64,000 nucleotides of DNA, from NCBI RefSeq assembly GCF_003334255.1, contig NZ_QOWU01000005.1; one strand, 5' to 3'. The notes beneath the pieces are model-generated. The model made no database searches, had not been told where the DNA came from, and was given only the letters and a program-made list of their open reading frames with translations. A program made the translations under genes and the position numbers. Shown here piece after piece: positions 16,966-20,676 of the stretch. This DNA is from Escherichia coli (GTDB taxonomy: Bacteria > Pseudomonadota > Gammaproteobacteria > Enterobacterales > Enterobacteriaceae). Each line of letters begins with the position of its first letter. Positions within the stretch are counted from its first letter, which is position 1.

Positions 16966-18819
16966 ATGAGACGATTTCTGACGACGCTGATGATACTCCT
17001 GGTCGTGCTGGTGGCCGGGTTATCTGCGTTAGTGTTGCTGGTGAATCCGAATGATTTCCGCGACTATATGGTCAAGCAAGTTGCTGCACGTAGCGGTTAT
17101 CAATTGCAGCTCGACGGGCCACTGCGTTGGCACGTCTGGCCGCAGCTTAGTATCCTCTCCGGGCGAATGTCTCTCACCGCCCAGGGCGCAAGCCAGCCAC
17201 TGGTTCGCGCCGACAACATGCGTCTGGACGTGGCGCTTTTACCACTACTGAGTCATCAACTGAGCGTTAAGCAGGTGATGCTAAAAGGGGCAGTGATCCA
17301 ACTGACGCCGCAGACGGAAGCGGTGCGCAGTGAAGACGCTCCGGTTGCACCGCGCGACAATACCTTGCCGGATCTGTCAGACGATCGCGGATGGTCGTTT
17401 GATATATCCAGTCTTAAGGTGGCGGACAGCGTGCTGGTGTTCCAGCATGAAGATGACGAGCAGGTGACAATCCGCAATATTCGCCTGCAAATGGAACAAG
17501 ATCCCCAACATCGTGGTTCATTTGAGTTCTCCGGGCGGGTTAATCGCGATCAGCGCGATCTCACGATATCCCTTAACGGTACGGTAGATGCTTCTGATTA
17601 TCCGCATGATTTAACGGCGGCTATTGAACAAATTAACTGGCAGTTGCAGGGTGCCGATTTACCAAAACAAGGTATTCAGGGGCAGGGGAGTTTCCAGGCC
17701 CAGTGGCAGGAGTCACATAAACGCCTTTCATTTAACCAAATTAGTTTGACCGCCAATGATAGTACGCTAAGCGGGCAAGCACAGGTTACGCTGACAGAGA
17801 AACCGGAATGGCAGCTGAGGCTGCAATTCCCGCAACTGAATCTTGACAACCTCATCCCGCTTAATGAAACCGCGAATGGTGAAAACGGTGCCGCGCAGCA
17901 GGGGCAGAGCCAATCAACGTTGCCGCGCCCGGTCATTTCTTCGCGTATTGATGAACCGGCCTATCAGGGACTGCAAGGCTTTACGGCTGATATTTTGTTG
18001 CAGGCCAGTAACGTGCGCTGGCGCGGAATGAATTTTACAGATGTTGCCACGCAAATGACCAACAAGTCGGGTTTGCTGGAAATTACTCAACTGCAGGGCA
18101 AACTTAACGGTGGACAGGTTTCACTGCCGGGCACGCTGGACGCGACATCAATAAATCCGCGGATAAACTTCCAGCCAGGGCTGGAAAACGTTGAGATTGG
18201 TACCATTCTGAAGGCGTTTAACTATCCGATTTCGTTGACCGGAAAAATGTCACTGGCTGGTGATTTCTCCGGTGCTGACATAGATGCCGACGCATTCCGC
18301 CACAACTGGCAAGGACAGGCACATGTCGAAATGACCGACACGCGCATGGAAGGGATGAACTTCCAGCAGATGATTCAGCAAGCGGTAGAGCGTAATGGCG
18401 GTGATGTGAAGGCCGCTGAAAACTTTGATAACGTGACGCGGCTTGACCGCTTTACCACCGATTTGACGTTGAAGGATGGCGTCGTGACGTTAAACGACAT
18501 GCAAGGTCAATCGCCTGTGCTGGCGCTGACAGGGGAAGGCATGTTGAATCTGGCAGATCAAACCTGCGACACCCAGTTTGATATTCGGGTCGTGGGTGGC
18601 TGGAACGGGGAAAGCAAACTGATTGATTTCCTGAAAGAAACGCCAGTACCGCTGCGGGTTTATGGCAACTGGCAGCAACTCAATTACAGCCTGCAAGTGG
18701 ATCAGTTACTGCGCAAACATCTACAGGACGAAGCGAAACGTCGCCTGAATGACTGGGCCGAGCGGAATAAAGATTCCCGTAATGGCAAAGATGTGAAGAA
18801 GTTGCTGGAGAAGATGTAG
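16966..18819 (+). CDS. asmA: Outer-membrane assembly protein AsmA (617 aa)
   Basis: 617-aa ORF with N-terminal membrane anchor; follows dcd. Confidence 0.93.
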   Translation: MRRFLTTLMILLVVLVAGLSALVLLVNPNDFRDYMVKQVAARSGYQLQLDGPLRWHVWPQLSILSGRMSLTAQGASQPLVRADNMRLDVALLPLLSHQLSVKQVMLKGAVIQLTPQTEAVRSEDAPVAPRDNTLPDLSDDRGWSFDISSLKVADSVLVFQHEDDEQVTIRNIRLQMEQDPQHRGSFEFSGRVNRDQRDLTISLNGTVDASDYPHDLTAAIEQINWQLQGADLPKQGIQGQGSFQAQWQESHKRLSFNQISLTANDSTLSGQAQVTLTEKPEWQLRLQFPQLNLDNLIPLNETANGENGAAQQGQSQSTLPRPVISSRIDEPAYQGLQGFTADILLQASNVRWRGMNFTDVATQMTNKSGLLEITQLQGKLNGGQVSLPGTLDATSINPRINFQPGLENVEIGTILKAFNYPISLTGKMSLAGDFSGADIDADAFRHNWQGQAHVEMTDTRMEGMNFQQMIQQAVERNGGDVKAAENFDNVTRLDRFTTDLTLKDGVVTLNDMQGQSPVLALTGEGMLNLADQTCDTQFDIRVVGGWNGESKLIDFLKETPVPLRVYGNWQQLNYSLQVDQLLRKHLQDEAKRRLNDWAERNKDSRNGKDVKKLLEKM

Positions 18820-18834
18820 GTTACCAGGTGACCA

Positions 18835-18880
18835 GTCCTGTAGGCCTGATAAGACGCGTAAAGCGTCGCATCAGGCGTTC
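18835..18880. repeat. REP element downstream of asmA
   Basis: cctgtaggcctgataagacgcgtaaagcgtcgcatcaggcg. Confidence 0.7.
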
Positions 18881-19092
18881 GTGGCGGCATCATTATATTC
18901 TGAATATGTAAGATCGAAGGCTGTTCCGTTCACTTGATGTTCCTCGCTACTATGGAACGCTCAAGCCGGTGAACGTGCCAGGGTGGCTCAATCTCCACCA
19001 CCCTGGCAACCCGGGCTCCCGGCGGTAAATCGCCGATGGCGCGGTTCCCTCATCTTATTCCTTTCGGCTATTGGGTAAAATGACCGATACCA

Positions 19093-20676
19093 TCACACCT
19101 CGTACTCCATCTCGCCATCCTTACGCAGCGGTATAATCTGCACCTTCTGCACGCGATGGCTTTCTACCTGCAACGTTTTAAGCAAATAATCCCCCACCTG
19201 AACTTCTTCGCCAGGTTTTGGAATACGCTGCAAATACTCCATCAACAGCCCGGCAATGGTGTGATATTCACGTTTTTCATCCAGCGGCAGCGGCACATAT
19301 TGCACCAGATCCTCCAGCGGCATATGACCATTCGCCGTCCAGGAACCGTCCGCATTCTTCTGAATATCATGGCGGGCGTCGATCTCTTCCACTTCGTTCG
19401 GTAAGTTACCGGCAATGGTTTCAGTGACGTCACTTAATGTCACAATCCCTTCCACCGAGCCAAACTCATCCACCACAAAAGCAAAGTGCGTGCGGGCATT
19501 ACGGAACTGCTCCAGGGCAGGTAACAACGGCAAGGTTTCCGGGAACACCAGCGGCTGGCGAATCAACACCCGCAGGTTGAGCGGTTCGCCGCGCAGAGAC
19601 TGTTGTAGCAGGTCGATAACGTGAACAACACCGAGCAAATCTTCTGCGTCATCACCGTCGGTAACCACCAGCCGCGTATGCTGATTTCGCTCCAGCAACT
19701 GGCGGATTTCTTCTTCCGGCGCGTTGAGATCGATATGCTCAATATCGTGGCGCGACGTCATAATGCTGCTGACGGTACGCTGGTTAAGATTAAGTACCCG
19801 CTCAATCATCCGCCGTTCCTGCGGATTAAAGATCTGCTGGTTACCATGATCCACCAGCATGGACGCGGTTTCGGCGTCCAGTTCCGCATCTTCTTTTTGC
19901 CCGCTAAGCAGGCGCATTACCGCTTCGGTAGTCCGCTGGCGCAGCGTCTGGTTAGCGGAAAGAAAACGTCGCCGGTTAAAGATAGCCAACTGATTGAGCG
20001 CCTCGATCATCACCGAGAAACCAATGGCAGCGTACAGGTAGCCTTTCGGAATGACGAAGCCGAAACCTTCTGCCACCAGGCTAAAGCCAATCATCAACAG
20101 GAAGCTTAAGCAGAGAATAACGATCGTCGGGTGACTGTTAACAAATTGCGTTAACGGCTTGCTGGCCATCAACATCAGGCTGATAGCGATAACCACGGCG
20201 GCCATCATGACCAGTAAATGGTCGACCATCCCGACGGCGGTAATCACTGAGTCGAGTGAGAAAATGGCGTCCAGTACCACAATTTGCGTCACCACGCCCC
20301 AGAACTTCGCACCTTTGCGTTGTGTGGGATTATTGCTGTCTTTCCCTTCCAGCCGTTCGTTCAGCTCCATCGTGGCTTTGAACAACAGGAAGAAACCACC
20401 AAACAGCATGATTAAGTCGCGGGCGCTAAAGGTAAACGAGCGGAAGCTGAACAGCGGTTGAGTCAGGGTGACCAGCCAGGAGATTGACGCCAGCAGTAAC
20501 AGGCGCATTAACATTGCCAGCAGCAGCCCGGTAACCCGTGCGCGGTCACGCTGCTTCGGCGGTAGTTTTTCGGCGAGGATGGCAATAAAGACCAGGTTAT
20601 CAATGCCGAGGACCAGTTCGATCACAATCAGCGTGATTAACCCGGCCCAGATAGACGGATCGGCAATCCATTCCAT
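19093..20676 (-). CDS. yegH: TerC-family membrane protein with CBS and CorC domains, YegH (527 aa)
   Basis: Trimmed from the 549-aa ORF to the ATG giving [30 protein letters not shown]; multi-TM N-terminal half plus cytoplasmic CBS region. Confidence 0.9.

Follow-up and report, generated by a model that had tools for sequence, protein, structure and literature searches.

A truncated copy of a dispersed enterobacterial repeat in the asmA-yegH spacer of Escherichia coli K-12 carries a stem-loop that probably determines where both convergent transcripts end

Introduction

Rho-dependent transcripts were reported by Dar and Sorek in 2018 to end precisely just past stable stem-loops without U-rich tails; these U-less stems guard the transcripts against PNPase and RNase II, and just beyond the terminal stem-loops lie rut sites (PMC6061677). 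According to Adams et al., Rho-terminated RNAs are trimmed by 3'-5' exonucleases (PMC7815308). REP and BIME sequences are dispersed intergenic repeats downstream of genes, which form hairpins and can fix the 3' ends of mRNAs or make these ends more stable. BoxC, ERIC/IRU and RSA are low-copy enterobacterial intergenic repeats with palindromic parts. The RSA repeat measures 150/151 bp and occurs in 6 copies in K-12 (PMC5172473, Table 1). TwoAYGGAY (RF01731), in which two AYGGAY-type loop hairpins are enclosed by a long helix, has been proposed to bind CsrA (PMC4333381).

Here we compare the spacer between asmA and yegH of Escherichia coli K-12 with these systems. Its main hairpin is like the stems of Dar and Sorek in being stable and U-less, with a 3' end a few nucleotides past it and a bicyclomycin-sensitive, C-rich region beyond, and unlike them in that one stem is common to two convergent transcripts and comes from the relic of a repeat, not from unique sequence. 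The repeat family to which the spacer belongs shares with REP and BIME elements the dispersed intergenic position downstream of genes, the hairpins and the association with mRNA 3' ends. Its sequence is nevertheless unrelated to theirs; its unit is a multi-helix structure of ~300-465 nt, compared with ~35 nt for REP, and a genome holds from a few copies to around twelve, compared with hundreds for REP. The family is also like BoxC, ERIC/IRU and RSA in being a low-copy intergenic repeat with palindromic parts. ERIC is an imperfect single palindrome, which the asmA-yegH family is not, and BoxC is found as a flanking motif only, in the Enterobacter subfamily, and is missing from the K-12 copy.

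Results

The hairpin segment between asmA and yegH

The window, that is, the whole 64,000-nt stretch of E. coli DNA that was analysed, corresponds to the udk-dcd-asmA / yegH / wza region of E. coli K-12. Over 873 nt surrounding the hairpin site, identity with the MG1655 and DH5alpha records was 100%. The two convergent genes end at 18819 (asmA) and 19093 (yegH), and the intergenic region between them measures 273 nt. It is framed by the following features.

16966..18819, + strand: asmA coding sequence, a 617-aa ORF, as in the annotation of the identical RefSeq loci
18844..18876, no strand assigned: REP palindrome 3' of asmA, with 14-nt arms that are 86% complementary
19093..20676, - strand: yegH coding sequence, TerC family, convergent to asmA, from the RefSeq annotation of the identical loci and the ORF list

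An earlier note on this DNA had described a non-coding stretch of about 200 bp between the two genes with no convincing ORF, and a strong hairpin in it that neither a REP element nor terminator features accounted for. The description of the spacer was borne out: the sole ORF inside the segment has 31 codons and a GTG start (18983-19078), for which reason coding potential was rejected. No RefSeq annotation was present at the segment across thousands of genomes. A literature match for yegH, which dealt with host microRNAs, proved unrelated.

The covariance-model search that the note had proposed was run as a permissive Rfam search of the window, and returned no match to the hairpin and no TwoAYGGAY match in the K-12 segment. 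A sub-threshold naRNA4/REP match (18843-18915) was obtained only beside the segment. A scan prompted by the cloverleaf-like fold of the segment found neither a tRNA nor a tmRNA. A scan of 18700-19250 found neither a sigma-70-like promoter nor, to either side of the hairpin, any T-run-bearing site resembling a terminator.

The segment 18880-19095 folded better than its shuffles on both strands (z -3.7 and -4.0). The predicted fold comprises three hairpins within a closing stem.

18927..18975, no strand assigned: hairpin 1, an inverted repeat with the base stem CGTTCAC / GTGAACG (18927-18933 with 18969-18975)
18976..19008, no strand assigned: hairpin 2, the inverted repeat singled out by the earlier note, with an 11-bp stem and an 11-nt loop
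19011..19044, no strand assigned: local hairpin 3 of the K-12 copy, from predicted folds, with the core CGGCG GTAAAT CGCCG

The base stem of hairpin 1 is conserved and its upper part variable. The U-tract-less inverted repeat of the note is present and extends to the 11-bp perfect inverted repeat of hairpin 2, whose arms TGCCAGGGTGG and CCACCCTGGCA lie at 18976-18986 and 18998-19008. A perfect inverted repeat of 11 bp was reached by only 2 of 2000 shuffles of 18890-19092. The predicted stability of hairpin 2 is -22.0 kcal/mol in the asmA sense and -24.4 kcal/mol in the yegH sense. Hairpin 2 thus has the G+C-rich stem-loop of an intrinsic terminator, but its tails, CAACCCGGG on the + strand and CGUUCACCGG on the - strand, hold no U run 3' of the stem, and it was rejected as a canonical intrinsic terminator because it lacks a U tract. 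It was also rejected as a REP element, since it has no match to the REP consensus and its paralogues belong to a different family. On both counts the note had been right.

A dispersed repeat family in Enterobacteriaceae

The 171-nt core of the segment was searched sensitively against 5,426 complete E. coli genomes. Besides the orthologous locus, the search recovered matches of 60-80% identity elsewhere in E. coli, in the intergenic regions ygaY(MFS)-proX, mmuM-tauA and lysO-aqpZ. A further paralogue lies at yohP-dusC, and aligned paralogues at other E. coli loci show 75-86% identity. An E. coli genome holds a median of 3 family places and a maximum of 10. MG1655 has 3 blastn-detectable copies, namely the truncated one at asmA-yegH and full-length ones at lysO-aqpZ and yohP-dusC, and the two full-length K-12 copies carry no annotation. 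The three stand at K-12 coordinates 2139501-2139681, 915033-915282 and 2229121-2229370. An nhmmer profile of the family matched 19077-18922 at model positions 99-255 of 255 (E 2.7e-35), and similarity of the left flank to other family copies reaches about 18897.

~18897..19077, - strand: truncated repeat copy, from the nhmmer family profile, the paralogues and the left-flank similarity

The strand given is the best-folding strand of the family, which is yegH-sense. What the earlier note had called unassigned is one truncated member of a dispersed repeat family, which explains both the sequence and its hairpin. The RSA repeat, the first candidate for the identity of this repeat, fits poorly by length and copy number, the two properties that were compared: K-12 has 3 unequal copies of the family (~157 and ~250 matched nt), as against 6 RSA copies of 150/151 bp.

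A conserved 20-base motif of the family, scanned for in a single genome of each bacterial species, gave at least 120 loci, of which all but a few were in Enterobacteriaceae or in MAG contigs carrying the element. The genera among the listed matches were Enterobacter, Lelliottia, Silvania, Kluyvera, Citrobacter, Atlantibacter, Kosakonia, Pseudescherichia and Superficieibacter, together with Escherichia (E. albertii, E. whittamii and cryptic Escherichia clades); related family copies were found in Klebsiella too. Among these listed matches, genomes of Enterobacter, Lelliottia and Silvania held 5-13 or more copies each, with 5-11 or more in Enterobacter and at least 13 in Lelliottia. The conserved unit is generally ~290-330 nt long and ~465 nt in the Enterobacter subfamily.

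By crude ORF gene calls, on which placement and orientation rest, the family prefers the ends of convergent genes, where 43 of its 82 classified copies stand, and shuns divergent promoter regions, with 3 of 82; copies between tandem genes are sense in 14 cases and antisense in 22. The 14 sense and 22 antisense tandem copies lend no support to a sense-specific RNA role deduced from orientation bias. No associated transposase or recurrent neighbour gene was found for the family copies; the neighbours that do recur are orthologous flanks such as lysO, dusC and asmA. An association with plasmids was rejected, as the family matches were chromosomal or stood in mislabelled records.

Stop-free ORFs ~100-190 codons long cross the G+C-rich element at 43 of the family loci (e.g. 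L012 8966-9347). They were judged spurious as genes in view of the covarying stems and the frame-breaking 1-2-nt indels between copies, and they could be mis-annotated as hypothetical proteins.

Truncation and allelic variation at asmA-yegH

Alignment with E. coli SE15 (phylogroup B2) and E. albertii revealed that K-12 is without exactly 178 nt that are present in both. In the full-length allele the 8-mer ATTGGGTA stands at both ends of the segment missing from K-12, and K-12 keeps one of the two.

19070..19077, no strand assigned: deletion junction ATTGGGTA, from alignment with E. coli SE15 and E. albertii

The lost domain adjoins yegH. It includes the closing-helix strand CGGCGATTT, the partner of AAATCGCCG at 19027-19035, and holds both CA(N)GGA(N)G hairpin loops, so that no such motif is left in the K-12 relic. 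In the consensus structure of full-length copies, AAATCGCCG pairs with the distant CGGCGATTT instead of forming hairpin 3. A 178-nt deletion between the 8-nt direct repeats in the K-12 lineage removed this yegH-side domain.

The full-length asmA-yegH allele was present in about 1,502 E. coli genomes and the K-12-type deletion in roughly 2,700, the latter figure being what is left of the 4,193 genomes with at least 80% coverage of the flank-to-flank query once the full-length allele is taken away. In about a fifth of E. coli genomes the element is absent from this place or replaced. The element is dispensable at asmA-yegH, because the locus is polymorphic in E. coli.

The spacer (18820-19092; loci L131, L132 and L133) has at least 4 alleles in E. 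coli. A REP-only spacer of 67 nt was found in strain A32, O157:H7 and others carry a RelE/ParE toxin and HTH antitoxin gene pair in the spacer, and the remaining genomes have further arrangements. In two cryptic-clade Escherichia genomes (L035 8672-9122; L107 242-695) the element is inverted relative to asmA and yegH. REP sequence stands at both borders of these inverted copies, which suggests that the inversion was REP-mediated.

The note had also proposed a conservation analysis. At the asmA-yegH locus, conservation did not exceed neutral expectation, and it was found at the level of the family instead: the core is mostly 95-99% identical across E. coli, which is not above the flanking gene ends, and the hairpin 2 stem has uncompensated mismatches in the orthologous copies of several Escherichia lineages. 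Because of these mismatches, and because the element is missing in about one fifth of the genomes, selection on it at asmA-yegH is weak at best.

Covarying helices and GGA loops of the family

We folded 69 representatives with at most 92% mutual identity with RNAalifold. The consensus contains 51 pairs, and 27 of them show compensatory changes among the 69 copies. A covariation test, limited to the two helices that K-12 retains (the base of hairpin 1 and hairpin 2), was then carried out on an alignment of 67 sequences with the K-12 copy included. The base of hairpin 1 had compensatory changes at 3 of its 7 pairs, with 98.7% of cells paired, and hairpin 2 at 8 of its 11 pairs. Together this amounts to 11/18 pairs and 148 cells with double changes. 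Standard pairs filled 95.1% of the cells of the two helices, versus 36-47% when the 3' partners were slid by 1-3 columns, and the covariation score was matched by 0 of 500 shuffles. The subfamilies have CCAGGGTGG/CCACCCTGG, CAGGGGGCGG/CCGCCCCCTG or TTAAGGGGG/CCCCCTTAA at the position of hairpin 2. Hairpin 2 is a conserved helix of the repeat family.

The family consensus folds at -67 kcal/mol in the yegH sense versus -44 kcal/mol on the opposite strand, and among pairs predicted on both strands G-U outnumbers A-C by 24 to 6. The better yegH-sense fold and the excess of G-U over A-C suggest, in a test that is not decisive, that the structure matters in one single strand, which may be RNA or single-stranded DNA.

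Full-length copies (e.g. L131 507-650 (-), L134 1534-1783 (+), L135 3371-3122 (-)) have a 5' domain in which two GGA-loop hairpins stand in a long helix. The loops of full-length copies read CAUGGAUG or CAGGGAUG with an invariant GGA, and a pair of CA(N)GGA(N)G motifs at a distance of 28 nt occurs in 64 of the 67 full-length copies. We take the CAUGGAUG and CAGGGAUG loops to be near the SELEX-type site of CsrA.

TwoAYGGAY (RF01731) matched full-length copies over the whole length of the model on the yegH-sense strand with 31.5-33.8 bits, below the gathering score of 43, and such sub-threshold matches recur on five independent family copies. Full-length members thus resemble TwoAYGGAY in having two AYGGAY-type loop hairpins enclosed by a long helix. 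They differ from it by further helices 3' of the two-loop domain, and the K-12 asmA-yegH copy differs in being without that domain. The segment was rejected as a TwoAYGGAY member, because the matches are below the gathering threshold and the domain is deleted in K-12.

We tentatively propose, as one joint reading that could well turn out to be wrong, that the parent family may constitute a structured element of Enterobacteriaceae that is mobile, RNA-like and as yet undescribed. The 5' domain of such an element would be TwoAYGGAY-like, its two GGA loops being of the CsrA type and near the consensus, and three further covarying helices would follow. The element would spread into 3' intergenic regions, often beside BoxC or REP, and on decay would leave 3'-end stem-loops behind, like the one at asmA-yegH. 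If this were true, the copies at lysO-aqpZ and yohP-dusC in K-12 and at asmA-yegH in B2 strains would be expressed RNAs binding CsrA or another protein.

The same observations bear on whether the K-12 copy still performs the function of its family, for example as a CsrA-binding TwoAYGGAY-like RNA or as a structure acting at the DNA level or in transposition, with the RNA ends at the locus being incidental. The strong family covariation, the one-sided G-U to A-C ratio (24 vs 6), the paired CA(N)GGA(N)G loops at 28-nt distance (64/67) and the recurrence of TwoAYGGAY similarity on independent copies would all agree with such a role. The K-12 deletion, however, took exactly the domain with both GGA loops together with one strand of the closing helix, uncompensated changes accumulate in the orthologous stems, and element-less alleles are common. 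We therefore give a retained family function at this locus very little credence.

RNA 3' ends at the hairpin

The Term-seq data of Adams et al. (2021) for MG1655 list two 'orphan' 3' ends in the spacer (PMC7815308, Supplementary file 1). Coordinates were converted as window = 2158578 - K-12 coordinate, which was checked at both gene ends.

19012 (K-12 2139566, minus strand), + strand: steady-state RNA 3' end in the asmA sense, from Term-seq (PMC7815308)
18971 (K-12 2139607, plus strand), - strand: steady-state RNA 3' end in the yegH sense, from Term-seq (PMC7815308)
19040..19140, + strand: C-rich, G-poor stretch (C:G = 33:17) that includes 19102, a candidate Rho loading region

The asmA-sense end lies 4 nt past the base of hairpin 2 and the yegH-sense end 5 nt past it, and the printed flanking sequences agree at both. 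The asmA-sense end has average reads of 42362.8 and 31838.4 in two entries (PMC7815308), which appear to be the LB OD 0.4 and M63 tabs. The yegH-sense end has reads of 2740, 2875 and 4207 in three entries, which fits one per condition tab (PMC7815308). The check for a transcript signal that the note had suggested thus placed the 3' ends of both convergent transcripts at the hairpin.

In the same study a bicyclomycin-dependent Rho termination region was called at K-12 2139476 (-) with a score of 7.69 and p 1.1e-18 (PMC7815308, Supplementary file 2). This corresponds to window position 19102 (+), 90 nt downstream of the asmA-sense end, a coarse position since such regions were called with 800-nt windows. 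The table has no entry for a Rho termination region on the yegH-sense strand. Both strands accordingly show a precise 3' end just past a U-less stem, and the asmA strand shows in addition Rho-dependent read-through with C-rich, G-poor sequence downstream. The asmA-sense data fit the description in PMC6061677 point for point, and the yegH-sense fit is one of position relative to the stem only.

Homology, covariation and the deletion are shown directly, as are both mapped 3' ends and the bicyclomycin-sensitive region. We conclude that the ~180 nt between the REP element and yegH are a decaying truncated repeat whose hairpin is likely to serve as the U-less stem that sets the 3' ends of asmA and yegH. 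After the loss of the yegH-side domain, the strong stem-loop that remained would be common to both convergent transcription units. Transcripts of asmA would read through the REP element and the hairpin, be terminated by Rho at least ~90 nt further on, at the yegH end or within it, and be trimmed by 3'-5' exonucleases back to 19012, 4 nt past the stem. Transcripts of yegH, which run on the opposite strand, end at 18971, 5 nt beyond this stem. Exonuclease trimming would thus be the source of the 3' ends, and the hairpin probably protects the asmA and yegH mRNAs, the element itself being presumably a relic without further function of its own. The Term-seq tables have no ends at the hairpin-2 homologues of the other two K-12 copies (PMC7815308), which argues that the 3'-end role depends on context and needs transcription into the element.

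The mapped ends could alternatively be true termination points, with the hairpin acting as a non-canonical, U-less, bidirectional intrinsic terminator. Ends on both strands 4-5 nt past one very stable stem between convergent genes are what such a terminator would leave. Against this, both sides of the stem are without a T run and the consensus scan was empty; polymerase passes the hairpin, because a strong bicyclomycin-dependent read-through signal lies ~90 nt downstream on the asmA strand; and U-less stems mark the processed ends of Rho-terminated RNAs (PMC6061677). We consider bidirectional intrinsic termination unlikely.

3'UTR-derived sRNAs are common in E. coli. A discrete regulatory sRNA whose 3' end is formed by the hairpin, whether transcribed on its own or cut out of the 3' UTR of asmA or of yegH, would be in keeping with that frequency, with the defined and fairly abundant RNA 3' ends and with the strongly structured region. 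Yet the spacer has no promoter-like site and no U-rich tail as used by Hfq-dependent sRNAs. The accessible parts of the supplements to a RIL-seq-based sRNA prediction and to an Hfq-CLASH study contain no asmA 3'UTR or asmA-yegH intergenic entry, and in those of the former asmA appears as a CDS entry only, with a very low score. The decaying repeat copy is moreover deleted, inverted or replaced in many strains. As neither a promoter nor a U-tailed terminator was found, nor any recovery in the accessible parts of these Hfq interactome sources, an Hfq-dependent sRNA gene was rejected, and a discrete sRNA of any kind seems to us highly unlikely. The note had suggested that the segment 'could hold a small RNA or a structured 3' UTR': the structured 3' UTR stands, with both ends 4-5 nt past the hairpin, and the discrete sRNA gene is not supported.

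Under the reading of a decaying repeat with a protective stem, the annotation gap at asmA-yegH in K-12 is closed, its 200 bp being a repeat relic. The 'orphan' ends of Adams et al. become assignable to an asmA 3' UTR of 193 nt and a yegH 3' UTR of 122 nt with one common protective stem. The locus would then exemplify how convergent genes terminated by Rho make use of a decaying repeat as their 3'-end structure. Both 3' ends already stand in published tables, and the K-12 finding is an ordinary one. The by-product may matter more, namely a repeat family that is widespread, of low copy number and strongly covarying, whose GGA loops are invariant and which is missing from Rfam.

Neighbouring repeats and insertions at other family copies

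At ygaY-proX the family element and BIMEs are alternative alleles. The element is present there in 544 E. coli genomes (L003/L004 3861-4312, compared with L129 and L130), and most strains have one or two REP/BIME units. The ygaY-proX element is a replacement and not a clean insertion. No clean MITE-type pair of filled and empty sites was found, given that the element replaces BIMEs at ygaY-proX and that the flanks differ at asmA-yegH.

The Enterobacter units of ~465 nt (L011-L014, L032, L057-L067, L095-L103) are bracketed by inverted BoxC-like palindromes, CCCTCTCCC-nnn-GGGCTGAGGGATCCCCA ... TGGGGAACCCTCAGCCC-nnn-GGGAGAGGG, whose 3-4-nt loops often match. One outer side of these units often runs into the classical BoxC tail GGGTGAGGGCATCAGGCCGCA. 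The family element may insert into BoxC or be mobilised together with it. The K-12 copy is without BoxC-like terminal palindromes.

In three family copies, L018, L020 (about 1176-1521) and L021 (Enterobacter sp. MGH 24), an insertion sits precisely within the loop of the hairpin-2 homologue, and ATC is duplicated. The insertion in L020 is a 55-nt remnant with the ends TGCACTGAACC and GGTTCAGTGCA; those in L018 and L021 are longer, IS-like sequences that have an end in common with this remnant. These loop insertions are reminiscent of IS elements that target REP loops. In Atlantibacter subterranea (L115-L120), 2-3 tandem GTGGAATTGTTCCGTTCG repeats stand at the end of the element that matches window position ~18920. 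In Citrobacter gillenii, a match to the C4 antisense RNA with its a1/b1 target and an isrK-like match, as in the immunity region of P1/P7-type prophages, were found at L093 1189-1373, ~500 nt from a family copy.
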